DNA of 64,000 nucleotides from an uncultured Dehalococcoidia bacterium (GTDB lineage: Bacteria > Chloroflexota > Dehalococcoidia > Lucifugimonadales > UBA3495). The stretch lies in NCBI GenBank assembly GCA_958296445.1, contig OY282565.1, positions 1,565,570-1,629,569 of the forward strand. Reading direction: 5' to 3'. Each line of letters starts with the position of its first letter. Position 1 is the stretch's first letter. Under the pieces are notes generated by a model, which saw only the letters and a program-made list of their open reading frames with translations, searched no databases and was not told the DNA's origin. The position numbers and the translations under genes are program-made. Of the stretch, positions 10,300 through 39,901 are shown piece by piece.

Positions 10300-11145
10300 T
10301 TAGCGCAGGACGGCTTCGGCCATGCGCTCCAGTTGCTTGCCCATTTCGTAGTCGTTGGCGACGTGGTCGGGGCGTACTACTACGCGGTCGGCGCCGGCGT
10401 TTAGGTAGGATTGGACGGTGGGGCCGTCGGCGGGCTGGCCGTAGACGCTGATGGTGATGGATTTGGGGTCGCGGCCTACTTCGGCGGCCATTGCGTCGAG
10501 GCGGCGGCGGCTGTCTTCGACTTCGGCGGGGGTGACGCGGTTGGGGAGCCAGCCGTCGGCGTGGGAGACGATGCGGCGTAGGACGTTGCGGGCCATTCCG
10601 CCGATGATGATGGGTGGGTGGGGCTGCTGGGCGGGCTTGGGGTAGGATTTTACGGGGGGGAAGTTGTAATAGTGGCCGTGGTATTCGGCTTCGTCTTTAG
10701 TCCAGAGTTCTTTCATTACTTCGAGGGCTTCGCGGGTTTGGGTCCAGCGATGGTCGAAATCGCCGCCGAAGATTTCGGTTTCCTCGCGGAGCCAGCCGGT
10801 GCCGATGCCGAAGAGGAAGCGGCCGCCGCTGAAGCGGTCGAGGGTGGCGATTTCTTTCGCCAGGAGGAGGGGGTTGCGCTCGGGAACGAGGGTGATGCCG
10901 GTGCCGAGCTTGATGCGGGATGTGGCGCCGGAGGCGCGGGCGAGGGCGATGTAGGGGTCGGTGAAGTGGGAGTAAGTCCAGGGGATTTCGCCGCCGGTGG
11001 CGGGGAAGGGGCTGTTGCTTTGCACGGGGACGGCGGGATGTTCGGCGTACCAGATGGACTCGAAGCCGAGTTCTTCGGCTTTTTGGGCCATAAAGGCGGG
11101 GTCGATGGTGTAGGCGGGCAGTGGGGTGGAGACTCCGACGGTCAT
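10300..11145 (-). CDS. LLM-class (luciferase-like) F420/flavin-dependent oxidoreductase
   Basis: 'ELGFESIWYAEH...LATLDRFSGGRFLFGIGTGW' matches the luciferase-like monooxygenase pattern. Confidence 0.7.
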   Translation of the reverse strand: MTVGVSTPLPAYTIDPAFMAQKAEELGFESIWYAEHPAVPVQSNSPFPATGGEIPWTYSHFTDPYIALARASGATSRIKLGTGITLVPERNPLLLAKEIATLDRFSGGRFLFGIGTGWLREETEIFGGDFDHRWTQTREALEVMKELWTKDEAEYHGHYYNFPPVKSYPKPAQQPHPPIIIGGMARNVLRRIVSHADGWLPNRVTPAEVEDSRRRLDAMAAEVGRDPKSITISVYGQPADGPTVQSYLNAGADRVVVRPDHVANDYEMGKQLERMAEAVLR

Positions 11146-11151
11146 TTTGGT

Positions 11152-11610
11152 TTACCTCCTGGCGGCGTATGCCATTACGTTTTGGGGTACGGGGAGCAGG
11201 TAGGGCAGCAGCAGCGCGGCGGCCCCGGTGAGTTGGACGGAAACGGGATGCCCCTGGCCGTCGCAGGTTACGGTTAGGTTGTCGGCGATGGGGTGGGACG
11301 CGGCCGGGGTTTTGGCGTTGAACAGGCGCAGGATGTCGCGCTCCCGGTCATAGGATACTTGAGGCATCCACTGCGTAGGGGGCCAGGCGTTGCCGAATTC
11401 GTCGGGCAACAGGTGGGGCAACAGCGTTTCCGCGCCGTCCAGCAGTTCGATGGCGGACGGCCCGATATCTATGCGGCGGCCGGTATCGTCCCGCTTGAGG
11501 CAGAAGACTGCTAGGTTGTCGGCGATGGTGCGGGCGCCGTTGGCCCCTCGGCCATCGGAGAGATACAGGGTGTTGGAGAGGTAGGATACTCTCAATTGCG
11601 GTTTTTTCAT
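11152..11610 (-). CDS. Hypothetical protein with two DUF2283-like repeats
   Basis: Two internal repeats end in '...IELLDGAETLLPHLLP' and '...VQLTGAAALLLPYLLP', a DUF2283-like signature. Start was moved to ATG 11610 (MKKPQLRVSY). Confidence 0.45.
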   Translation of the reverse strand: MKKPQLRVSYLSNTLYLSDGRGANGARTIADNLAVFCLKRDDTGRRIDIGPSAIELLDGAETLLPHLLPDEFGNAWPPTQWMPQVSYDRERDILRLFNAKTPAASHPIADNLTVTCDGQGHPVSVQLTGAAALLLPYLLPVPQNVMAYAARR

Positions 11611-11706
11611 ATCGCTCTTATTTTCCGAGGAAATTGCGAAATTTCCGGCTGGCACCCTGAGAGAAGGGAAGGGTCTCACTGGCTAGGGCGGGATTCTTCG
11701 CTTTGC

Positions 11707-13224
11707 TCAGAATGACAGATAATCAGCTAAAATTCCCCGGACTTGCAATTGCTGCCGGAGGTAGTCCATGCTGCGGTTGCCTTTGATGGCGTTGCAGGTG
11801 TGGCACATTAGTTGCAGGTTGCTTATGACGTGCTGGCCGCCTCTGGATAGGGGGGTGATGTGGTCTATGGTTAGGACGTGCAGGGGGAGTTCGTGTTCGC
11901 AGCCGACGCAGCGTTTTTTTTGGGTGGCGTACATGAGTTCTTTTTCGGATCGGGGGTTGGCGGGAAAGTCCGGTTTTAGGTCGGTGCGCTGGCTTGGGGC
12001 GGTTAGAATCAGCGGGCTCCAGTCTTCCCAAGATTTGCTGTCGTCTTCGGCCATAGGTATTTGCAGTTCCCGTTTGGCGCGGTCTTTCAGGACTTCGGCG
12101 GCTTGGGGGGCGATGTCTATGCCGATCCATTGCCTTGCCAGCTTTTCGGCGGCGATGCAGGCGGTGGCGCAGCCGCAGAAGGGGTCTAGAATCAGGTCGC
12201 CCGGGTTGGATGACGCTTTGATGATACGCTCCAGCAGAGCCAGCGGTTTTTGGGTGCGCCATCCGGTATATTCGCCGCCTTTGGTGGAATAGTTGGTGAA
12301 TCCCAAGGGTTCGACGAACAGGTTTTGGGGCGGATTTCCGGCGTCGGCGTCGGCATACCGCTTTAGGCCCGGCCATACTCCTTTTGTGGGGTGATGTATT
12401 AGTCCGGCTTGGTCTAGAGCGTCCAGACGTTGATGTATGCCTTTAATTTCCCGATAGCCGGGGATGAAATTTTGCTCTATGTACTCGGCATACTGGCCGG
12501 TTTTTGGGGCTGACCAGTGCCTTCCTCTTGCGGTTACGTTGTATTTTTTCCAGGGATGACCGGATTCTCCGTTGGAAGTTCCTGCCCCGGTTAAGTCGGC
12601 GCTCCGGTATCGTCCGCGTTCATCTTTGGAGGGATATGCTGTCAGGAGTTCGTCGTCACTCTTTGGGGTAGTGACAAGATTCCAGCAGGGATTGGGGCCT
12701 TTGGAGTACAAAAACAGGTGGTCTAGGATGCGCCCGTAGCGGTTGGGGTCGTTGTGGGAAGTGGCCCGTTTCCAGACGATATTGTTGATGTAGTTTCCTG
12801 AGCCAAAGAGGGCGTCCATTACTCCTTTGAGGTAGTGGCTGGCCGTATCGTCGCAGTGCAGGTAGATGCTTCCGGTGGTTTTCAGTACGCGGTGCATTTC
12901 CAGCAGGCGGATAGCCATAAAGGTGAGGTAGCCGGCCATGCTTTCGCTGTGGGAGAGTTTGGCGCCGTTGATTAGGTGGAACAGGGCGGGGCGGCGGTAT
13001 TCGATTTCGTCGATCCATTCCTCTTTCATATCGTCGAGAGTCCAGACGTCGTCGAACTCCGCGCCTTTGGCTTCGCTGTCCAGCGGGGCGGCGTAGGATT
13101 GGTCGGACTTGAAGGGCGGGTCGAGATAGATCAGGTCAATGCACTCCGAGTTTATGCCTCGGAGGATGTCTAGGTTGTCCCCGGTGAATATGGTGCGGGA
13201 TGGCACGTTGCAGGCGGTTGGCAT
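11707..13224 (-). CDS. Beta-class N4/N6 DNA methyltransferase fused to a C-terminal HNH nuclease domain
   Basis: Motif IV 'DLIYLDPPF' is N-terminal and motif I 'LDPFCGCATACIAAEKLARQWIGIDI' follows it. C-terminal HNH: 'CVGCEH...DHITPLSRGGQHVISNLQLMCHTCNAIKGN'. Confidence 0.8.
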   Translation of the reverse strand: MPTACNVPSRTIFTGDNLDILRGINSECIDLIYLDPPFKSDQSYAAPLDSEAKGAEFDDVWTLDDMKEEWIDEIEYRRPALFHLINGAKLSHSESMAGYLTFMAIRLLEMHRVLKTTGSIYLHCDDTASHYLKGVMDALFGSGNYINNIVWKRATSHNDPNRYGRILDHLFLYSKGPNPCWNLVTTPKSDDELLTAYPSKDERGRYRSADLTGAGTSNGESGHPWKKYNVTARGRHWSAPKTGQYAEYIEQNFIPGYREIKGIHQRLDALDQAGLIHHPTKGVWPGLKRYADADAGNPPQNLFVEPLGFTNYSTKGGEYTGWRTQKPLALLERIIKASSNPGDLILDPFCGCATACIAAEKLARQWIGIDIAPQAAEVLKDRAKRELQIPMAEDDSKSWEDWSPLILTAPSQRTDLKPDFPANPRSEKELMYATQKKRCVGCEHELPLHVLTIDHITPLSRGGQHVISNLQLMCHTCNAIKGNRSMDYLRQQLQVRGILADYLSF

Positions 13225-13289
13225 CGGTTGGCTATTCCTGATGGGTGGTTGGGTTAGTTTGCTCAGGGTGGCGGGCGGGGGTGTTTGGG

Positions 13290-13829
13290 TTAGGCGGCTT
13301 TTTCTTTTTCCCGGTTTAGCGCGATGTCTAGGAATGGTTTTAGGAGCAGTTGGGCGTTTTCTAGGTCTAGGGCTACTAGGCTGCCGTTTTCGTTGTAGTG
13401 GGCGGTCATTCCTTGGGCGGCGGGCTGGCTGGTGTGAATGATTACCGGGTCGTTGGTCTGGATTCTCAGTTTTTGGGTTTCGGGAGTGTAGAATACAAAG
13501 ACGTCTTCCACGGGATCGCCCGAGTTGGGGCCGGAGTTCAGGAAAATGGAGCTTTTTTTGGTGATGGTGCCGGGTTGGGTTTCGTCGGGATGGCGGGCGG
13601 CTTCGATGAGGGGTTCTAGGGCGTTTTCTGCGCCATCCAAGTCTAGGGCCACTAGGCGGTTGCCTTTGTCGTAGTGGGCTACCATATAGTTGGCGGTGGA
13701 TTCGCTTTCGTGGATTCGCACCAGACTGCCGGCTTGAATGGATAGGTATTTGACTTGGGGAGTGTAGAACACTACAACTTCCGGCAACGGTTCCGTTGGA
13801 TCCCTAGGGCTTACTATGTATTTCTCCAC
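13290..13829 (-). CDS. Hypothetical protein with two DUF2283-like repeats (putative antitoxin-type partner)
   Basis: Internal duplication: 'VVFYTPQVKYLSIQ...NRLVALDLDGAENALEPLIE' and 'VFVFYTPETQKLRIQ...GSLVALDLENAQLLLKPFLD'. Overlaps the upstream gene by 16 nt. Confidence 0.5.
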   Translation of the reverse strand: MEKYIVSPRDPTEPLPEVVVFYTPQVKYLSIQAGSLVRIHESESTANYMVAHYDKGNRLVALDLDGAENALEPLIEAARHPDETQPGTITKKSSIFLNSGPNSGDPVEDVFVFYTPETQKLRIQTNDPVIIHTSQPAAQGMTAHYNENGSLVALDLENAQLLLKPFLDIALNREKEKAA

Positions 13830-14140
13830 GGTCTTCCTCCATATCTGTCTGAGAGTTTTCTATTTGCGTAACAAGTGAGCAGTGCGCCAGTGATTTCATC
13901 TCCTAAGAACACCACTGCAATCCACTGATTGAATGGTAACACGCGCCCAACAAGAATTGTCCTAACTTCCCCGTCCGGCATAATTGTCTGCCGTCGGTCA
14001 TACGGGTCATATATGACCTGCATAACCCATTCGGGCCGAATGTCAGGATGCCGTTGATTAGTGGTTTCTCCGTGGATCGGGACTTTGGGCAGTGCCTCGT
14101 ATTCCCGGCGCAGTTGCAGGATTTCGTTCAGTTCTTCCAT
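13814..14140 (-). CDS. DUF4258-like small protein (toxin-type fold, tentative)
   Basis: 108 aa from ATG 14140 (MEELNEIL). Lower GC. Starts 5 nt after the STAND gene stop. The tail '...WIAVVFLGDEITGALLTCYANRK' resembles the DUF4258 C-terminus. Confidence 0.4.
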   Translation of the reverse strand: MEELNEILQLRREYEALPKVPIHGETTNQRHPDIRPEWVMQVIYDPYDRRQTIMPDGEVRTILVGRVLPFNQWIAVVFLGDEITGALLTCYANRKLSDRYGGRPWRNT

Positions 14141-14145
14141 ACCCG

Positions 14146-17100
14146 TTACAGAATCACGGACTCCTCGGTGTCTAGGTCGTTGGGGGGTTGTTGGCCGGTG
14201 AAGTTTTGCCACCAGTTGGCGAAGGGTTGGGGGCCGTATTTGGTGCGGAGGCGGGCTAGGTGGATGCGGGCCTGGGCGATTACGGGGAGGTTGTGGGTTG
14301 CGGCGAGTTGGTAGGTGCGGGCGGCCCAGGAGAGGGCGGCGTCTAGGTCGTCGCGGTCTTCGGCGGCCATTCCTAGCTGGCCGTAGGTGCGGGCGGTGCG
14401 GGGGGTGTCTTGGATTTCCTCGAAAATTTCGCGGGCGCGGTGATACCAATGTTCGGCGTCGTCCAGCTTTTTTTGCTCGTGGAACAGGACGCCGAGTTGG
14501 CGGCATTCGTCGCCTGCGCTGCGCCAGTCGCCCAGCTTTTCGTATTTTTCTAGGGCCAGGGTGTACCAGTGTTCGGCGTCTTCGGGGAACATTTGGCGGC
14601 CCTGCTCCAGCAGGCCGAGGTAGTGAAATTCTAGGGCCATCTGGGTTTCGTTGCCCATACGGTCGCTGAGGGTTAGGGATTGCTTGTACCAGTTTTCGGC
14701 GTCGTCGAACTGATATTGGGCGTGGGCTACGGTGCCTAGGGCGTGGTAGATCAATACTGAGGTTTCTTCGTCGCGGGCTTCCTCCAGGATTTCGCGGGCG
14801 CGGTGATACCAGCTTTCCGCTTCCTGATACTCGAAACGGAATTGGGCGCAGAGGCCGAGGGAGCGGTAGTCTTTGACCATTTCCTCGACGTCTTCCAGCC
14901 TTTGGTGGATGTCCAGGGATTTGGAGAACCAGTCGCGGGCTTCGGTGTAGCGGCGCTGGTACTGGCGCAGCAGTCCCATACTATAGTAGTCGTCGGCGAC
15001 CGGGGCGCGGTCTTCGCCGTTTTCGATGATTGCTAGGGAGCGGGTGAACCATTCCTCGGCTTGGTCGAGCTGCCAGCGTTTCAGGGCGACTTCGCCGGTC
15101 TGGTGGTAGACGGCGGCGGCGCGGGGGTCGGCGTCGGCGTCGGCGTTGGGCTGGGCGGCGAAGTAGTCGAGGAGTTGGCGGTTCATAGCGTCGGCGCGTT
15201 CCAGTTCGCCGGTTTCGATGCACTCTAGGGCTTCGGTTCCGAGGAGGTAGAGCCATAACTCGATGGCGCCGTTGGCCTGGGCGGCGGCGGCGGTGGTTCC
15301 GGCGGACTCCAGCAGTTGGCGGCGCAGGCGGCGCAGTTCGGGGTAGCGTTTTTGCATCCGGTATACTTGGGCCAGGGGCTGGGTCAGGAGTTGGGCGTTG
15401 TCCCACTGGCGGGTTTCTAGGGACAGGGCTAGGGCCTGGGTGAGGTTGCCTTCCTCGGCTAGGATGGCGGTGGTGCCGGAGTCTTGGTTTTCGTAAAGGG
15501 TTTCCATAAAGTAGTCGGCGGTGTCGGCGTAGACGCGGACGAATTCGGCTTCGAGTTGGGCGACGCGGGCCGGGGGGAGTTGGCGGTAGAGGGCGCGGCC
15601 ATAGAACCAGGACATTGCGGGGTGAATCTGGTAGACGCTGGGGGTGATGGGTTCGAGGAAGCCGTCGTCGCGGGCGGAGCGCAGGAGGGTGCGGCAGGCG
15701 CCCCAGCCCATTTGCTCGCCCATCACCGAGCGGTAGACGTTTTCTTGGGTGATGTGGGTAAGGATGTCCATCATCACGCGGCTGCGGAACAGGGAGAGGA
15801 AGGGCAGATGGGTGCGGCTGCGGCGGGGCATCCGGGAAAAGGCGTGGTCAAGCAGGGCGGTCAGGTAGACGGGGCGGCCATCCTCGCCGGGGGCGGGCTG
15901 GTGGTTTTCGATGGCCCGGCGCAGTTCGGCGAGCAGCACCGAGGCCGGAATTTCTTTGAGTAGCGGAATCGCTACTTCCATTGCTAGGGGGTGGCCTTCC
16001 AGCAAGTCCAGCAGCTCTAGAAATTCGGGGCCTAGGCGGGCGGCGTCAATGTTGCTTTCCTCGATAAGGCGGGTGGCGAATTCTAGGCGGTCTTGGCTGG
16101 CGAGGCCGGGCAGGGTATAGCTGCCGTGGGGGGTGGACAGCCAGGGTTCGGGGTTGCGGCGGCTTACCAGCAGGACGCCGCCCTTGCCCCTTTGGCTCTC
16201 TGTTTCGCTCTCCGGGGGGGAACCGGCGGTTGGGGCGGATAGTTCGGCTAGGAATTGGTCTAGTTCGGCCAGCTCGCTGTCGTCGAGCAGCCCGGTTCCG
16301 GGGGTGGGGAAGCCTGCTAGGTTTTCTACGCCATCCCATACCAGCAGGGTTTGGTGTTCCCGCAGGTAGTCCAGCAGCCAGCGGCGGCGGGCGGGGGCAG
16401 GCAGGTCGCCGAATTCTAGGCCGGCGAGGGCGGCGCCGGTTTCGTGAAGTGCTTTGTCCAGCCCGGCGCCTACGTCGAAGGTGGTGTGAAAGACGCCGCT
16501 GGGCCGGTTGCCGCTTTTTTCCAGCCAGGCGGCCAAGCCTAGGGCGGTTTCCGATTTGCCGACGCCTACCGGGCCGGTTAGCAGCACTACGGGGTTGGCG
16601 TCGAGGGCCTGCTCCAGATCCAGGATTTCGCGGCGGCGGCCAATCAGCCCGTAGGGGCCGCCCCGGGGGAGCTGGCGGGGCGGGGCTTCGGGGGTGGCGG
16701 GCAACATTCCGGGGATGACGCGCTCGGGCTCCTCGGCTTTGACGGCGGCGGGGGTGTAGCGGGCGGATTGGTAGACTAGGGGGGTTATCCAGTCCCAAGA
16801 CGGCATTGGCCCGGCGGCGGAGGGGCGGCGGGGATGCTCCATCAGGGCGCGGCGGGCGGCGGATACGGCGGCGGCGGCGCCGGCCCCGCGGGCTATGGCG
16901 GCGTAGAAGGCGTCGGCGAACAGCTTGCGCCCCGAACCGCCTAGGGGGATGGGGAGGAGGGTCACTTCGGGGGGGCCGGACGTAGCCAGCTCTTGGCCGG
17001 CTACGTATGAGTAGTCAATGGCGGAGCAGGTTAGCAGCACGGCGGGGATTCCGGCGGCCGCGACGGCTTGGGACAGGCGGTCAATGGGGACGTGGGGGCC

Positions 17101-17817
17101 GATGCCGCGGAGTGCGGTGCCTTCGTTGCTGATTTCTAGGCCGTCCAAGTGGAGCAGGTGGTAGTGGCCGGGGCGCTCTGCTAGGTGGGCTTCTAGGGCT
17201 TCGACGGAGGCCGGGCGCAGGCAGTCTAGGGTGACTTCGACGTCTAGGGATTCCATTGCGCTCAAGGCTTCGGTGGCGATGCCTTGGGCGGCGGGGGGAC
17301 ATAACATAAGGACGTTGAATTGGGTTTCGCTGAGGGATGGGCCGGAAAACTGCGGGAGTTGGTCGGCGGGGGCGGGATGGCGGGTGATGGATTCGGCGCG
17401 GGCGGCTAGGTAGCCGACTTGGGGGTCGTTGATGAGTTCCCAAGGGAGGGAAAGGAACTCGGGGCGGGCGGAAATGATGGACAGGCGGAAGGGGCGGGTT
17501 TCAGGGGGGTTGAGGCGGGCCAGAATATCGGCGGCTTGGGTGGTGGCCCGGAAAACGGTTTCCAGCATCAGCCGGCCGAGGTTGCGCAGGCCGGCTTCGG
17601 CGGCCTCGGCCCGGGGGCGCGATTCGCCGAAGGGCTCCGACGGGTAGCTGGTGAACAGCCAGGCTAGTTCTAGGAGTTCCTCGTCGGTTAGGGGAAAGGG
17701 GAAGGAGACGGGCGGCGCGGATGCGCGGCTGCCGGAGTCGTCTACTATAGAAAGCTGAAGCCGGCCGCTTTCGGGCAAGTCCAGGATTTCCAGCGTATCG
17801 GCCAAGGGTTCCTCCAT
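14146..17817 (-). CDS. STAND-class NTPase: N-terminal CHAT/caspase-like domain, P-loop NB-ARC/NACHT-like module, C-terminal TPR array
   Basis: 1223 aa. Walker A 'LLTGPVGVGKSE' and Walker B-like 'LLVWDGVENL'. The N-terminus has possible His/Cys dyad contexts 'HYHLLHLDG' and 'AVLLTCSA'. At least 7 TPR-like units of the pattern 'Y..LG......Y..AE.WY..S/AL'. Confidence 0.7.
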   Translation of the reverse strand: MEEPLADTLEILDLPESGRLQLSIVDDSGSRASAPPVSFPFPLTDEELLELAWLFTSYPSEPFGESRPRAEAAEAGLRNLGRLMLETVFRATTQAADILARLNPPETRPFRLSIISARPEFLSLPWELINDPQVGYLAARAESITRHPAPADQLPQFSGPSLSETQFNVLMLCPPAAQGIATEALSAMESLDVEVTLDCLRPASVEALEAHLAERPGHYHLLHLDGLEISNEGTALRGIGPHVPIDRLSQAVAAAGIPAVLLTCSAIDYSYVAGQELATSGPPEVTLLPIPLGGSGRKLFADAFYAAIARGAGAAAAVSAARRALMEHPRRPSAAGPMPSWDWITPLVYQSARYTPAAVKAEEPERVIPGMLPATPEAPPRQLPRGGPYGLIGRRREILDLEQALDANPVVLLTGPVGVGKSETALGLAAWLEKSGNRPSGVFHTTFDVGAGLDKALHETGAALAGLEFGDLPAPARRRWLLDYLREHQTLLVWDGVENLAGFPTPGTGLLDDSELAELDQFLAELSAPTAGSPPESETESQRGKGGVLLVSRRNPEPWLSTPHGSYTLPGLASQDRLEFATRLIEESNIDAARLGPEFLELLDLLEGHPLAMEVAIPLLKEIPASVLLAELRRAIENHQPAPGEDGRPVYLTALLDHAFSRMPRRSRTHLPFLSLFRSRVMMDILTHITQENVYRSVMGEQMGWGACRTLLRSARDDGFLEPITPSVYQIHPAMSWFYGRALYRQLPPARVAQLEAEFVRVYADTADYFMETLYENQDSGTTAILAEEGNLTQALALSLETRQWDNAQLLTQPLAQVYRMQKRYPELRRLRRQLLESAGTTAAAAQANGAIELWLYLLGTEALECIETGELERADAMNRQLLDYFAAQPNADADADPRAAAVYHQTGEVALKRWQLDQAEEWFTRSLAIIENGEDRAPVADDYYSMGLLRQYQRRYTEARDWFSKSLDIHQRLEDVEEMVKDYRSLGLCAQFRFEYQEAESWYHRAREILEEARDEETSVLIYHALGTVAHAQYQFDDAENWYKQSLTLSDRMGNETQMALEFHYLGLLEQGRQMFPEDAEHWYTLALEKYEKLGDWRSAGDECRQLGVLFHEQKKLDDAEHWYHRAREIFEEIQDTPRTARTYGQLGMAAEDRDDLDAALSWAARTYQLAATHNLPVIAQARIHLARLRTKYGPQPFANWWQNFTGQQPPNDLDTEESVIL

Positions 17818-17939
17818 GACGCGGGGCGGGCGGATGGGGCTAGGCGCGGCGGTGGTGAGGGGTTGATGCCCGCTTGTGCGGTGTGGTGCTTATACTATCA
17901 TTGCCCGGATACCCCGTCCAACGGAGGGGGTGAGGTTGC

Positions 17940-18180
17940 GAAATTCGGCTTTGTCGCTCTGAGCTAAGGGAAGGGTCTCGGCGCCCCAAGGTGGGATTCT
18001 TCGCTTTGCTCAGAATGACAGATAGCTTGCTCAGAATGGCAGGGGATTGCTCAGAATGGCAGGGGATTGCTCAGAATGACAGGGGATTGCTTGGAGTGAC
18101 GGATAGCTTGCTCAGAATGACAGGGCTTTGCTCGGAGTGACGGATAGCTTGCTCAGAATGACGGGGCTTTGAAGGGGCGG
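17940..18180. repeat. Family-1 intergenic repeat block with iterated 'ttgctcagaatgacag' sub-repeats
   Basis: The core 'ggtgggattcttcgctttgctcagaatgacag' is followed by about 9 degenerate 20-25 nt iterations. Confidence 0.85.
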
Positions 18181-18183
18181 GGG

Positions 18184-18951
18184 CTATTGGGCGGTGAAGC
18201 CGCCGTCTACGGCCATGGCTAGGCCGGTTACTAGTGAGGCGGCGGGGGAGCATAGCCAGGTTACGGATTCGGCTATTTCCTCGGGGGTGCCTAGGCGTCC
18301 GATGGGTTGGCGGATGGGGATGGTGGCTTCGTAGTCGGCTTCGCGGCCCCCGATTAGGCGGCTCATCATAGGGGTGTCTATGATGCCGGGGCAGACGGCG
18401 TTGATTCGGATGCCGTCTTGGGCGTATTCGAGGGCGGCGGCTTTGGTTAGGCCGACTACGGCGTGCTTGCTGGCGACGTAGGCCGATAGGCGGCGGGAGC
18501 CGACCAGTCCGGCGGCGGAGGCGGTGTTGACGATGGCCCCGCCGCCCTGCTGAATCATCTGGGGTATTTCGTGCTTTAGGCAGAGCCAGACGCCTTTGAC
18601 GTTTACATCGATCAGCCGATCCCACTGATCTTCGGGGTATTCGTGGAGGCGGCCGGCCATAAAGCCTTCGATGCCTGCGTTGTTGTAGGCGCAGTCGAGC
18701 TTTCCGTAGGCTGCCACTGTTTGGGCTATGAGGGCGGCTACGTCGTTGGGGCGGGAGACGTCGGCTAGGATGACCGTTCCGTCGCCGCCCATTGCTTTGA
18801 TGTCGCTCAGGGTTTCCTCGGCGCCGTCGGCGTTTATGTCGGAAACGACCACGGTGGCGCCCTCGCGGGCCATTACTAGGGAGGTGGCGCGGCCGATGCC
18901 GGAGGCGGCGCCGGTGACTAGGGAGATTTTGCCTTGCAGCAGACCTGGCAT
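18184..18951 (-). CDS. SDR-family oxidoreductase (FabG-like)
   Basis: 'GKISLVTGAASGIGRA' (TGxxxGxG), 'NNAG' and 'YVASKHAV' (YxxxK). Start was moved to ATG 18951. Confidence 0.85.
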   Translation of the reverse strand: MPGLLQGKISLVTGAASGIGRATSLVMAREGATVVVSDINADGAEETLSDIKAMGGDGTVILADVSRPNDVAALIAQTVAAYGKLDCAYNNAGIEGFMAGRLHEYPEDQWDRLIDVNVKGVWLCLKHEIPQMIQQGGGAIVNTASAAGLVGSRRLSAYVASKHAVVGLTKAAALEYAQDGIRINAVCPGIIDTPMMSRLIGGREADYEATIPIRQPIGRLGTPEEIAESVTWLCSPAASLVTGLAMAVDGGFTAQ

Positions 18952-18983: not shown

Positions 18984-19550
18984 CTATGCTTGCTGAAAAA
19001 TCTGGGATAGGGGCAGATCCAGCCCCGGGAGGGTTGTTGACTGGATAGTTTCGCCGGGGCCGTGGATTCGTAGCCGTTGCCATTCTCCGTTTTGCAGTTG
19101 CAAGACCTCTACGGTTTGGGCTTGGGGGGAGACTAGCCAGCATTCTAGGACGCCGATTTGGGCGTAGTCGGACAGCTTGCCCTTGATTTCGGCCCGGGTG
19201 TTGCCGGGGGAAAGGATTTCTACTACTAGGTCGGGGGCGCCGTGAATCCGGTCGTCTTGGACGATGTTGGCTCTTTGGTTGCTTATGAACAGCAGGTCGG
19301 GCTGGCGGGTGCGCAGGGGGTCGCGTTGTATGATGATGTCTAGGGGGGCGTACAGTACTTCGCCCAACCCGCGCTCGCTGACGAATTGGTGGACAGGCAG
19401 GTAGATTTTGGCGGAGGTTCGCTGATGGTAGATGTTGGGCGCGGCGGACATAATCACTTCGCCGTCCACGATGTCGAAGCGCAACATTGTTTCAGGCTCG
19501 TTGAGGTATTCTTGATAGGTGAGTTTGGTTCCGGTTTGCAGGGTGGTCAT
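18984..19550 (-). CDS. Uma2-family (DUF820) putative endonuclease, solitary copy
   Basis: 'RQPDLLFI...APDLVVEILSPGNTRAEIKGKLSDYAQIGVLECWLV' is the typical Uma2 PD-(D/E)xK-like core. Confidence 0.8.
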   Translation of the reverse strand: MTTLQTGTKLTYQEYLNEPETMLRFDIVDGEVIMSAAPNIYHQRTSAKIYLPVHQFVSERGLGEVLYAPLDIIIQRDPLRTRQPDLLFISNQRANIVQDDRIHGAPDLVVEILSPGNTRAEIKGKLSDYAQIGVLECWLVSPQAQTVEVLQLQNGEWQRLRIHGPGETIQSTTLPGLDLPLSQIFQQA

Positions 19551-33967: not shown

Positions 33968-34555
33968 CTATTTTAGGAGCGGGCCGAAAATGTTGGCGAT
34001 GGGTAGGGCGAAGCCGGGGAGGATTTGGGATTGGAGGGTTTGGCCCATTGTGTAGGTGGCGATGGTGGTTGCGGATTCGGGGGTTAGGTGCAGGACTTCG
34101 ATTGTGCGGGCGGGGAAGTTTACCAGCCAGCATTCTAATACGCCTATGCTGCGGTAGTCGGCTAGTTTTTCCGTTATGTCGCGGCGGGTGTTGCTGGGGG
34201 ACAGTATTTCCACCACTAGGTCGAGGGGCGATTGGATAAGCTGTATGCCAGCTAGGTCGGACTCGCGTCTTACGCCAGCGCGGGCGGCGCTTAGGTAGAA
34301 AATATCCGGTTGCCTTACCCGCAGGGGTTCCTTGCTAATCAGTACATCGCACGGGGCCATTATCGCTACGCCTAGCTCTCTTTCCCGCACAAACGGGGAG
34401 AGCTGCATCGCAATGTCAAGGCGAAGTATCTGATACTCAAGGGTTGGGTTGGGCGGCATTAGCAGGATTCCGTCCACAACCTCGCAGCGCTGCTTGGTTT
34501 CCGGCAACGCTTGCCATTCGTCGAATGTCAGCCTTTTGGCGCTGGCAGGGTTCAT
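33968..34555 (-). CDS. Uma2-family putative endonuclease, array copy 7 (first in transcription; most divergent N-terminus)
   Basis: 588 nt. Starts MNPASAKRLTFDEWQALPETKQRCEVVDGILLMPP. Its ATG (34553-34555) overlaps the dapF stop as TGATG. Confidence 0.8.
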   Translation of the reverse strand: MNPASAKRLTFDEWQALPETKQRCEVVDGILLMPPNPTLEYQILRLDIAMQLSPFVRERELGVAIMAPCDVLISKEPLRVRQPDIFYLSAARAGVRRESDLAGIQLIQSPLDLVVEILSPSNTRRDITEKLADYRSIGVLECWLVNFPARTIEVLHLTPESATTIATYTMGQTLQSQILPGFALPIANIFGPLLK

Positions 34556-37149: not shown

Positions 37150-38790
37150 CTAGTCGGGTTGGCCGAGTTTTGGTTGGCGGCCTTGGGGGGGGCGGGCGCG
37201 TTGGGCGGGCTGGTAGTCGGCGGGGCGGGGGGGCAGGTCGAAGTTTTGGCCGGACAGCATTTCGCCGATGGTGCGTAGCTGGATTTTGGGGAAATCGCGG
37301 GCCCATAGGTCGGAGTGGTAGAAACCGGCGCCGACGGCTTCTTGGCGCATATCCCGGGTGGGCGGTTCTAGGGATATGAACAGTCCCAGGGCGGCCTGCT
37401 CCCGTTCTACTACGCCTTTGAGGTCGCGGATTTGGGGGGATGATACCCGCCCGCCCTTGACTTGGATGACGGCTTTTTGGGGGGTGCGGCGCGGGCCGTC
37501 TAGGAAGTAGAGCATACCGTCAACGCCGCGGTCGGGGCCGCGCTTTTGTTCGGATTGCGGCTGCGCCTGTAGCAGGGATACGGCCCAGAACTGGAACTGG
37601 TAGGGGTCTTGTTCCCAGAGGGCGCGGGCGCTGCCTTCGTCCTGCGGTTCGCCTACTACGGCGTAATCGCGGCCGGCTTCTAGGGCGAAGGCGGTTTTCA
37701 GGCGGTTTTTCATCAGGGCTACGGCTAGGTGGGTTATGTCTATTCCCAGCCACTGGCGGCCGAGCTTGTGGGCGGCGGCTACCGCCGTGCCGCAGCCGCA
37801 GAACGGGTCAAGCACTACGTCGCCCTCGTTGGACGAGGCGCGGATGATGCGCTCTAGCAGGGCTTCGGGCTTTTGGGTGGGGTAGCCTAGTCGCTCTTTG
37901 GCTTGGGATGCGACTGCCCCTATGTCTGTCCATATATCTTGTAAAGGGATTCCCGGCATTTCGTCAAGGTATCTTTTATATGCCGGGACTGCTCCTGGCC
38001 GCGTCTGAACGATGCGGCCGGCGTCAATCAATTCCTGCATTCTTTCTTTGGAATAGCGCCAATAACGGGTGACTCCCATAACTTCATAGCTGGGGTTTCC
38101 TTTGGCTGCGCCGCCGGGCCCGGTTAGGTTATCCAATCTATAGCGGCGTCCGGTGTCGGGTTCCTCGTAGCGATAAGACTGGTCTACGTACTCTTGGTCG
38201 TATTGAGTATAGGTTGGGTTCCAAGTCCAGTTGGAAGTCTTGGTATAAAACAAAATCGTATCGTGAACCCGCCCGTGCTGCCGCCTGCCCTGCCGGGTGT
38301 CGCTGTGGGCGCTGGTGCGCTTCCAAGTTATATCGGTTCGGAAATTCTGTTGCCCAAACACGGTGTCCATAAGCAGTTTCAGGTAATGGCCGGCGGTGGG
38401 GTCGCAGTGGAGGTAGATGCTGCCGGTGGGTTTGAGGGCGCGGCGCAGTTCGACTAGGCGGGGGGCCATCATTGTGAGGTAGGCCATCATAGCGTTGCGG
38501 CCGATGAACTGGCGGAAGGCGGTAATCATATCCTTGACTGCGGGTGGGACGTTTGGGTTGGCGATTATGTCTTGCTCGAAGGTGTGTTCGGTTTCTTGGG
38601 TCCATTCCCAGGTGTCGGTGAAGGCGCGGATTTGGGCTGGGGAATCCTCGCCGGTTTTTTCGCGGAAGAGGACGTTGTAGGATGCGTTGGAGTTGAAGGG
38701 TGGGTCGAGGTAGACGAGGTCTACGGAGGCGTCGGGGACGCGCTCGCGGAGGACGGGTAGGTTGTCGCCGTAGAAGAGGGCGTTGGGCAT
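37150..38790 (-). CDS. Beta-class N4/N6 DNA methyltransferase fused to a C-terminal Mrr-like (PD-(D/E)xK) restriction-endonuclease domain
   Basis: '[16 protein letters not shown]' and '[26 protein letters not shown]'. C-terminus '[12 protein letters not shown]...[23 protein letters not shown]...GLFISL'. Start was moved to ATG 38790. N-terminal half is paralogous to 11707..13224. Confidence 0.8.
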
Positions 38791-39452
38791 CAGGGGGCCT
38801 CGCGGGCTAGGCGCTCGGCGTCGCGGATGTAGTCGGCGGTGTCGCGGATGTCGTGGATGAGCAGGTTGACCGGCTCGACGTTGCGCTCGACTACGGCGGT
38901 CTGGTAGATGTCGTGGGATATTGTGGCGTAGCGGCCTTTTATGGGCCGCAAGTCTTGGTTTTGCTCCCGGTTCTGCCAGACAAGGCGCGTCAGGCAGTCG
39001 TAAGTCCATTTTTCGTCGTCCGGGGTGGTTTCCACGCCGGTTCGGGCCAATATCAGGGCGTTGGTGGCCTGTAAAGCGGCGGCCCAAGCCTTTTCCGCCG
39101 ACTTGTGCAGGAGTTCGCGGTTCCAGAGTTGGTTGGCCTCATCCAAGTATTGGACGGCCTCGGAGTAGGTGGCGTGGGCCTTGGCAAACAGGTCGGTCAC
39201 TCGCTTGGTTTCCAGCATATTTGCGTTCTCCGGGTTTTGGCTGCCCAGGCTGCGTATTCCGGCTGAAGTTTGCCCGACGGTGGGCATCCGCCCGGTGCGG
39301 GCGAGGATCAGGGCGTCGGTGGCCCGCTTGGTGGCGCCCCAGGCGGCTTCGGCGGCGATGCGGTGCTTGCCGAGCTCCAGGATTTCGATGGCGTCGGCGT
39401 AGAGCGCCCAGGCGTCGGCGAAGATGGCGGCGGCTTGGTCGGGTTCTGGCAC
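38790..39452 (-). CDS. PaREP1/HEPN-like helical protein (one partial plus one full repeat)
   Basis: Two 'AxEAAWGA / [22 protein letters not shown]' signatures. GTG start at 39452, preceded by AGGAGA. An internal ATG at 39218 is an alternative start. The stop overlaps the methyltransferase ATG as TGATG. Confidence 0.5.
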
Positions 39453-39484
39453 GGGGTCTCCTAGGGTTTGGCTGGGACGGCGGT

Positions 39485-39901
39485 TCAGGGGGCCTCGCGG
39501 GCTAGGCGCTCGGCGTCGCGGATGTAGTCGGCGGTGTCGCGGATGTCGTGGATGGTGAAGTCCAGGGGGTCTACGCTGCCGTTGCATAGCACTAGGTCGA
39601 AAAGATAGACGGACAGGTGGGCGTACCTGTCTTTCAGATCCTCGAGCCCCGGAACTTCTTTGGCCAGGCGCGACAGCAAGCCATAGGTATCGGCGTCGCT
39701 GCCGGGTTTGGGTTCGATGCCGGTGCGGGCGAGAATCAGGGCGTTGGTGGCCTGGTTGGCGGCGGCCCACGCTTTTTCCGCTGATCTAAGCAGTTCGCGC
39801 TTGTCCCAATGCTTTGTTGCGTCGTCCAGCCGCGCTAGGGAATCCGCGCTATTGACGCGGGCTTCGTCCAGTAGAGCGACAACCTGTTTGGTTTTTAACA
39901 T
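39485..39901 (-). CDS. PaREP1/HEPN-like helical protein
   Basis: 138 aa. '[22 protein letters not shown]'. The last ~70 nt are identical to the 3' end of 38790..39452. Confidence 0.5.
   Translation of the reverse strand: MLKTKQVVALLDEARVNSADSLARLDDATKHWDKRELLRSAEKAWAAANQATNALILARTGIEPKPGSDADTYGLLSRLAKEVPGLEDLKDRYAHLSVYLFDLVLCNGSVDPLDFTIHDIRDTADYIRDAERLAREAP

Follow-up and report, generated by a model that had tools for sequence, protein, structure and literature searches.

When five neighbouring genes share one strand and stand almost without gaps, do they form a single antiviral system, or has a conserved gene gathered unrelated neighbours? This question is raised by a locus in a stretch of 64,000 nucleotides (nt) from an uncultured Dehalococcoidia bacterium (assembly GCA_958296445.1, contig OY282565.1, positions 1,565,570 to 1,629,569 of the forward strand), which we call the window. 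A first-pass annotation, made from the letters alone, had read the locus as a candidate defence cluster, in which a STAND protein resembling the Avs antiviral sensors was tightly coupled to a toxin–antitoxin (TA)-like pair and followed by a methyltransferase-HNH fusion, a repeat element and a second double-DUF2283 gene. Its five-gene layout was confirmed from the open reading frames (ORFs), which are as follows (lengths in amino acids, aa):

14146..17817, minus strand: STAND protein of 1223 aa, with a CHAT-like domain, an NB-ARC-type P-loop NTPase and seven TPRs (ORF and Pfam)
13814..14140, minus strand: putative toxin of 108 aa (ORF, family comparison, AlphaFold2 and Foldseek)
13290..13829, minus strand: putative antitoxin of 179 aa with two DUF2283-like domains (ORF, pairwise comparison of its halves, Pfam)
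11707..13224, minus strand: methylase-HNH fusion of 505 aa (Pfam N6_N4_Mtase and HNH_5)
11152..11679 as an ORF, or 11152..11610 (152 aa) from the ATG at 11610, minus strand: orphan tandem DUF2283-like protein

None of the five proteins has a name in the source record. The spacings also hold: the STAND stop codon lies 5 nt from the start of the 108-aa gene, which overlaps the 179-aa gene by 16 nt, and a further 65 nt precede the methylase-HNH gene. We consider it probable that this is a core STAND gene beside a variable slot, and that the slot gathered independent TA, methylase-HNH and orphan cargo. In the window genome and five relatives, such a slot would have collected selfish or defence-type genes independently of each other, namely a toxin-first TA module composed of a 108-aa alpha/beta toxin and a DUF2283-like antitoxin, a single-chain methylase-HNH enzyme, and an orphan tandem DUF2283-like gene, whilst the STAND protein itself would be a nucleotide-switch scaffold or signalling protein.

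A core gene beside a variable slot

Orthologues of the STAND protein, at 43-57% identity, were found in 73 marine metagenome loci, with adh_short or Uma2 upstream and a luciferase-like monooxygenase and PrpD downstream wherever the flanks were captured. The conserved block is therefore read as adh_short - STAND - luciferase-like monooxygenase - PrpD, with the variable slot directly downstream of the STAND gene. A tblastn search of these 73 loci with the toxin, antitoxin and methylase-HNH proteins returned no match. Because the 73 loci keep the flanks yet are without the pair, the STAND gene belongs to the core of this lineage of marine Dehalococcoidia and adjoins a variable slot; it has been inherited vertically and is not part of the cargo.

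The slot itself differs widely in content. The interval between the STAND and luciferase-like genes could be measured in 47 metagenome loci, and was empty in 13 of them (24-218 nt) and about 2.0-2.9 kb long in the other 34. Every large-slot locus inspected encodes a protein of ~656 aa in the slot, the copy in L042 (5998-7968) being an Abhydrolase_10 protein. Loci of this kind include L042, L049, L054, L062, L090, L093, L098, L101 and L114, some of which also encode an unannotated protein of 225-249 aa.

The neighbourhood singled out by the first-pass annotation does recur beyond the window, with a syntenic STAND gene and toxin/antitoxin pair in five other genomes (L002, which is the same as L007; L004; L005; L006; and L116). 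The annotation had named a neighbourhood conserved nowhere else as grounds for refutation, and this condition therefore does not arise. The pair fills the slot in this one subclade only. The gap between the STAND and toxin genes is 5-6 nt in the window, L002, L004, L005 and L116, and 14 nt in L006. The remaining cargo is less constant. Of the six genomes, only the window and L002 have the methylase-HNH gene (at 84% identity); L005 retains a 26-aa remnant of its 3' end, and L004, L006 and L116 have none of it, L004 carrying a PemK-type TA at that place.

Codon composition divides the locus along the same lines. The STAND gene has a GC content at third codon positions (GC3) of 0.78, like the luciferase-like gene (0.82) and the 152-aa orphan gene (0.79), against 0.50 for the toxin gene (total GC 0.49, the low value remarked on in the first-pass annotation), 0.63 for the antitoxin gene and 0.68 for the methylase-HNH gene. 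By this measure the STAND gene is native, and the toxin, antitoxin and methylase-HNH genes look foreign.

The pair apart from the STAND gene

Where does the pair occur when it is not behind a STAND gene? It adjoins one in 6 of ~41 loci, and a STAND gene lies within 8 kb solely at the syntenic loci; at the ~35 others no STAND gene is found within 8 kb, and the pair sits beside unrelated housekeeping genes. All 35 toxin-carrying genome loci belong to Dehalococcoidia/Chloroflexi metagenome-assembled genomes. The co-oriented upstream neighbours include MetH (gap of 3 nt), RRF (21 nt), BacA (26 nt), an OmpR-type response regulator (31 nt) and an ABC solute-binding protein (45 nt). In several genomes the pair overlaps the stop codon of CoxM, a CO-dehydrogenase flavoprotein, by 8 nt, and this site at the 3' end of coxM is used in ~9 loci; in L117 (4138-7573) the pair lies between the solute-binding protein and permease genes of an ABC transporter. 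Further examples beside housekeeping genes or a transporter cluster are L003:7034-8330 and L041:5382-8333. This siting suggests that the module relies on the transcription of host gene clusters, and the 5-nt STAND spacing reflects the habit of this TA family of sitting close behind co-oriented host genes.

Conservation of the junction between the two genes extends to the nucleotide sequence (window 13814..13860, L002-L017). Toxin and partner overlap by 16 or 19 nt in most loci, and the invariant C-terminal YGGRPW of the toxin is encoded by TAYGGAGGNNGNCC(G/A)TGG, which holds a GGAGG Shine-Dalgarno sequence followed 5-6 nt on by the GTG or ATG start of the partner (GTG for the window antitoxin). 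Since the ribosome-binding site and start codon sit within toxin codons, the YGGRPW motif and the translational coupling signal are the same nucleotides, and translation of the antitoxin is coupled to that of the toxin.

The pair occupies at least 10 unrelated sites, several genomes carry two or more copies, and L004 and L016 have tandem toxin-antitoxin-toxin-antitoxin arrays. Small, adjacent and co-oriented genes, translational coupling, multiple copies and variable contexts together make up the layout of a type II TA system. We infer that the pair is a separate, toxin-first type II-like TA module, in which the 108-aa protein would be toxic and the partner would neutralise it by binding.

The 108-aa putative toxin

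The 108-aa protein has no match in Pfam, NCBIfam or PADLOC. Its family is small, with 31 word-indexed homologues, none of which has a Pfam domain, and 61 matches among 1.84 billion representative sequences. The first-pass annotation had called it DUF4258-like and part of a TA-like pair with a DUF2283-like partner; the pair and its partner stand, and the DUF4258 label is weakly supported, as the matches to that family are sub-threshold. Indeed, the DUF4258 (PF14076) gathering score of 25 bits is reached by no family member: two of 23 members match at E 0.11, a distant relative (P0106) at 21.7 bits, and the consensus of a distant subfamily at E 0.1. These matches all fall in one register, with H-P-x-[IV]-x-x-E-W-[IV] at profile positions 13-64, and P0106 also has a DUF2283-like downstream partner. 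Used as a query for true DUF4258 members, P0106 returned 2 matches only.

The AlphaFold2 model of the 108-aa protein (predicted local distance difference test, pLDDT, 84.9) consists of helices followed by a four-stranded sheet, and the sole convincing match in a Foldseek search of the PDB is chain 7vd7_A, the toxin of a TA complex from Salmonella (prob 0.99, E 0.068, TM 0.52/0.58). The top 50 Foldseek matches contained no RelE, ParE, HigB or BrnT entries, a PDB sequence-profile search with the toxin family alignment gave no matches, and a fold search of BFVD returned uncharacterised viral proteins only. Considering the fold together with the weak profile matches, the toxin is probably a BECR/DUF4258-like RNase.

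How close would this be to the DUF4258 modules already described? A 2026 preprint moves DUF4258 to a colicin-like branch (10.64898/2026.08.28.747851), and the partners of E. coli DUF4258 proteins lie strictly downstream (PMC10790755). The window family shares with these modules a small alpha/beta protein of ~80-110 aa, encoded first and with the partner directly downstream. It differs in its longer N-terminal helix and invariant C-terminal YGGRPW, and has been found only in Dehalococcoidia/Chloroflexi genomes.

The DUF2283-like partners and their duplication

The double DUF2283-like architecture proposed at the outset is borne out for both proteins: within the 179-aa protein the two halves, joined by a linker of ~30 aa, share 44% identity over 66 aa (pairwise E 8e-19), and within the second tandem protein they share 33% (E 8e-8). 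Against DUF2283 (PF10049) the 179-aa protein scores 21.4 bits, with the cut-off at 23. At the level of the partner family the profile match holds, since the partner proteins match no Pfam family but DUF2283 (E <= 0.01 in 12 of the 35, the best value being 3.2e-7), and 10 of 15 homologues carry a precomputed PF10049 annotation. The predicted secondary structure of each DUF2283-like repeat is five strands and a helix.

In most modules the partner has a single domain (78-114 aa), and in about 13 of ~43 it is a tandem protein of 179-205 aa. By sequence the tandem partners form three groups (the window clade; L003/33/36/40; L014/20/22/32), within which N-domains cluster with N-domains or with single-domain partners at the same site, and C-domains with C-domains; it follows that domains were duplicated, or neighbouring modules fused, on more than one occasion. 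Some tandem partners have a STAND neighbour and others do not, the latter in L003, L014, L020 and others. The tandem antitoxin is probably a covalently linked dimer that binds the toxin. Compared with other small beta-rich DUF2283 proteins, each repeat of the window family fits the PF10049 profile, and the family differs in having two fused copies in about one third of modules and a family-specific helix, VLKPFVDAIL, at the repeat end. No description of DUF2283 as an antitoxin was found in the literature searched. A mention of DUF2283 in PMC4755241, which concerns regulators of integrative and conjugative elements and in which another DUF may have been mislabelled, was not used.

The orphan tandem protein matches DUF2283 at E 0.048. 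Its gene stands without a toxin gene beside it, and 6 nt separate its end from the luciferase-like gene. Counterparts of 150 aa and 184 aa occur in L002, L005 and L116, the 150-aa one in L002. Its start is most likely the ATG at 11610 (152 aa), which we prefer because the alternative GTG at 11679 falls in the repeat element and the L002 counterpart is of 150 aa.

Could the 108-aa/179-aa pair instead be a non-toxic accessory unit, for instance a regulator or chaperone pair, that rides with host operons? In favour of such a unit, no Pfam toxin family is found at threshold, the partner has no recognisable DNA-binding domain, and the modules are stable at syntenic sites such as the 3' end of coxM (~9 loci), which makes them less mobile than typical TA systems. 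We nevertheless regard this as unlikely, given that the best structural match (prob 0.99) is to the toxin chain of a TA complex, that the pair is multi-copy and found in tandem arrays, with foreign GC and a toxin-first overlapping layout, and that the only recurring profile hints are DUF4258, a BECR-fold TA toxin family (PMC11980606), and DUF2283.

The methylase-HNH fusion

A further kind of cargo is the fusion that the first-pass annotation described as a methyltransferase joined to an HNH domain, and this description stands: Pfam finds N6_N4_Mtase (E 7.6e-39) and HNH_5 (2e-13) in one polypeptide, and PADLOC its MTase_II model (8e-54). The methylase motifs read DPPF and FCGCAT and the nuclease motif CxxC...DH...N...H..CxxC, apparently intact, so that the 505-aa protein has both methylase and nuclease domains with their catalytic motifs in place. 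Its assignment as a beta-class DNA N6/N4 methyltransferase with a C-terminal HNH domain is solid at the level of sequence. Searches of plasmid and phage collections returned thousands of methylase-only matches and none that spanned both domains. The enzyme is probably restriction-modification-like, or a selfish methylase-nuclease, and may restrict DNA.

A second fusion in the window, at 37150..38787 on the minus strand, again has a beta-class N6_N4 methylase, 38% identical to the first, followed by a C-terminal Mrr_cat/NA-iREase1 nuclease. Directly upstream of it, at 38790..39901 (minus strand), two adjacent paralogous ORFs share a C-terminal motif; the 138-aa copy, the one scanned, has no Pfam match. 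Two paralogous methylases with swapped nucleases suggest modular single-chain restriction-modification enzymes.

In classical Type IIC/IIG enzymes the nuclease is an N-terminal PD-(D/E)xK domain and the methylase is of the gamma class. The window enzyme resembles Type IIC enzymes in combining a methylase and an apparently intact nuclease in one polypeptide, and differs from them in that a beta-class methylase precedes a C-terminal HNH domain.

The STAND protein

What, then, does the core gene encode? The CHAT-like/P-loop STAND/TPR architecture with at least seven TPRs, as first proposed, is supported at each of its three parts:

16822..17559, minus strand: CHAT-like (caspase-fold) domain, residues ~87-332 (Pfam, with orthologues above the cut-off)
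15898..16665, minus strand: P-loop STAND NTPase core (motifs read directly, weak Pfam matches)
14245..15159, minus strand: TPR array (Pfam TPR_12, TPR_10 and TPR_MalT, and a repeated motif)

The TPR array is the plainest of these, with TPR_12 at E 1.7e-27 alongside TPR_2, TPR_10 and TPR_1 in Pfam, and with seven units of ~42 aa that can be read directly at residues ~900-1190 by the motif A-x-x-W-[FY]. In the NTPase, Walker A reads GPVGVGKS and Walker B reads LLVWDG, and VLLVSRR and a GxP motif (EGHPLAM) are found as well; all four are invariant in orthologue alignments. The domain so carries Walker A, Walker B and a downstream ARC-type motif as a STAND/NB-ARC-type NTPase does; these four motifs we take to be the NB-ARC P-loop, kinase-2, RNBS-B and GLPLA, respectively. 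Pfam gives sub-threshold AAA_22, nSTAND3 and AAA_16 matches and no NB-ARC match to this region, and a PDB profile search with it found generic P-loops and, over the ARC region, a weak match to ADR1, a plant NLR (E 0.027).

The CHAT profile (PF12770) scores 21.6 bits on the window protein with the cut-off at 24, and covers profile positions 6-273 of 289; it passes the cut-off in the orthologues from L004 (29.5 bits) and L068 (35.4 bits), and the CHAT label holds at family level. His223 (HYHLLHLDG) and Cys264 (LLTCSA) occupy the canonical dyad positions in the window species only. Among 52 distinct STAND orthologues the window species is the single one with the catalytic Cys; the other 51 have Ala or Gly (LINASS, LINGGG), with the His mostly conserved, and the STAND proteins of the five other genomes with an adjacent toxin/antitoxin pair are likewise without the Cys. 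Three sequences of the window species, 99% identical to one another, all have Cys264. As a change from Gly to Cys takes one nucleotide, it may be neutral.

The reading of this protein as an Avs-like sensor is not supported. Avs/NLR-like antiviral STAND proteins have the same order of caspase-fold domain, NB-ARC-like P-loop NTPase and C-terminal TPR array. However, no Avs model in PADLOC-DB matches the STAND protein (a generic TPR model at 5.3e-10 and noise-level matches were all that was returned), the catalytic Cys is missing from 51 of the 52 orthologues, and the gene is a syntenic core gene of native GC3, whereas defence genes are typically patchy in distribution and lie in islands. Without the catalytic Cys, most members of the family cannot act as cysteine proteases, and we therefore think it more probable that the protein serves as an ATP-switch scaffold or in signalling than that it is an antiviral sensor armed with a protease.

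One system or several?

Several points weigh against our interpretation of a core gene beside independent cargo. In five of the six linked genomes the 5-6-nt STAND-toxin gap is kept despite only 38-55% identity between the N-terminal domains of their STAND proteins; co-transcription of STAND and toxin genes is likely in this subclade, where some acquired coupling between the two is conceivable. The CHAT-like domain of the window species, too, has both His and Cys. As to the TA module, the link of the toxin to DUF4258 is at sub-threshold scores only, and DUF4258 itself is listed among the BECR-fold TA toxin families with its activity given as unknown (Gerdes 2025, PMC11980606). Furthermore, a literature search did not establish the family of 7vd7_A, and an E. 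coli RelE query did not retrieve 7VD7; the AlphaFold2 model of the 179-aa antitoxin (pLDDT 48.5) was too poor for a fold search.

Some of these points would favour the view closest to the first-pass annotation, in which an NLR-like STAND sensor would control a TA effector, the DUF4258-like toxin with its tandem DUF2283 antitoxin, and all of these, perhaps together with the methylase-HNH, would make up one antiviral system. The genes are indeed co-oriented, the short gap is conserved across the subclade (5-6 nt in five genomes, 14 nt in L006) with co-transcription likely, every STAND-linked module has either a tandem antitoxin or a duplicated toxin-antitoxin array, and the dyad residues are present in the window. 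Yet this coupling is contradicted by the distribution of its parts: none of the 73 other STAND orthologue loci has the pair, and ~35 loci have the pair and no STAND gene. Tandem antitoxins are also found in loci without STAND, the catalytic Cys is absent from the other five linked genomes, PADLOC gives no Avs match, codon composition is discordant, and the methylase-HNH comes and goes independently. We consider a single defence cluster very unlikely.

Repeats, composition and the wider window

The repeat element noted before the second double-DUF2283 gene proved to be part of a larger set. Its 25-nt core, GTCATTCTGAGCAAAGCGAAGAATC, is present in 11 copies in the 64-kb window, where 0 are expected, and the copies, when aligned, define an element of ~75 nt that resembles repetitive extragenic palindromic (REP) sequences or miniature inverted-repeat transposable elements and forms a palindromic hairpin (-24.7 kcal/mol, z -2.5):

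11640..11718, minus strand: REP-like palindromic element overlapping the methylase-HNH stop codon
17995..18019, minus strand: 25-nt core of a further REP-like copy, upstream of the STAND gene (exact 25-nt match)
3331, 5954, 11692, 17995, 21532, 35483, 35644, 37040, 52011, 55473 and 56067: positions of the REP-like 25-nt cores

The methylase-HNH gene takes its last codons and its stop from the copy at 11692-11716. The copies are mostly intergenic, and short TGTCATTCTGAGCAA-like mini-repeats often precede them. A promoter and terminator scan of 11000-18300 found nothing above shuffled expectation.

Might the toxin, antitoxin, methylase-HNH and orphan genes then be one mobile element bounded by these repeats? 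Such an element could be drawn between the copies at 11692-11716 and 17995-18019, and the toxin, antitoxin and methylase-HNH genes have a GC3 below that of the genome; we consider it very unlikely, as the repeats also bracket the native STAND gene and recur about every 6 kb in the window, the GC3 of the orphan gene (0.79) is native, the subset of cargo genes differs between relatives, no integrase or transposase was found among the window ORFs inspected in the slot, and the four-gene block has so far not been seen at non-syntenic sites.

Least probable among the scenarios that we considered, we also note a hybrid one: in the six-genome subclade the STAND gene would have recruited the TA module and been co-transcribed with it, the window CHAT domain would have regained its Cys, and the activated STAND protein would cleave the ~30-aa linker of the antitoxin and free the toxin. 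If true, the locus would show, at its very origin, an abortive-infection switch in which an NLR triggers a TA module.

Elsewhere in the window, two Uma2-family (PF05685-like) genes lie at 18984..19550 and 33968..34555, both on the minus strand, and copies flank the STAND locus in relatives too. The long ORFs inspected in the 8-22 kb and 34.5-41.5 kb stretches are mostly on the minus strand. The window as a whole is strongly and uniformly asymmetric between its strands: GC skew of the plus strand is positive in every 1-kb bin (up to +0.34), and the cumulative skew climbs monotonically.

Implications

To conclude, the cargo beside the core STAND gene is in our reading of ordinary kinds, TA and restriction-modification-like, with some details that are new at the level of families. 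The toxin family lies outside Pfam and has been seen only in Dehalococcoidia/Chloroflexi genomes, and its C-terminal motif doubles as the ribosome-binding site and start codon of the antitoxin. The tandem DUF2283-like antitoxins are recurrent, hinting that the partner works as a dimer, and TA modules lie within clusters of host genes. Genes that lie close together and point the same way can look like a multi-gene defence system when all that has happened is that a selfish TA module took up a place behind a conserved host gene. For the STAND family itself, a core CHAT-like/NB-ARC/TPR protein without the catalytic Cys is a caution against calling every bacterial STAND protein antiviral.

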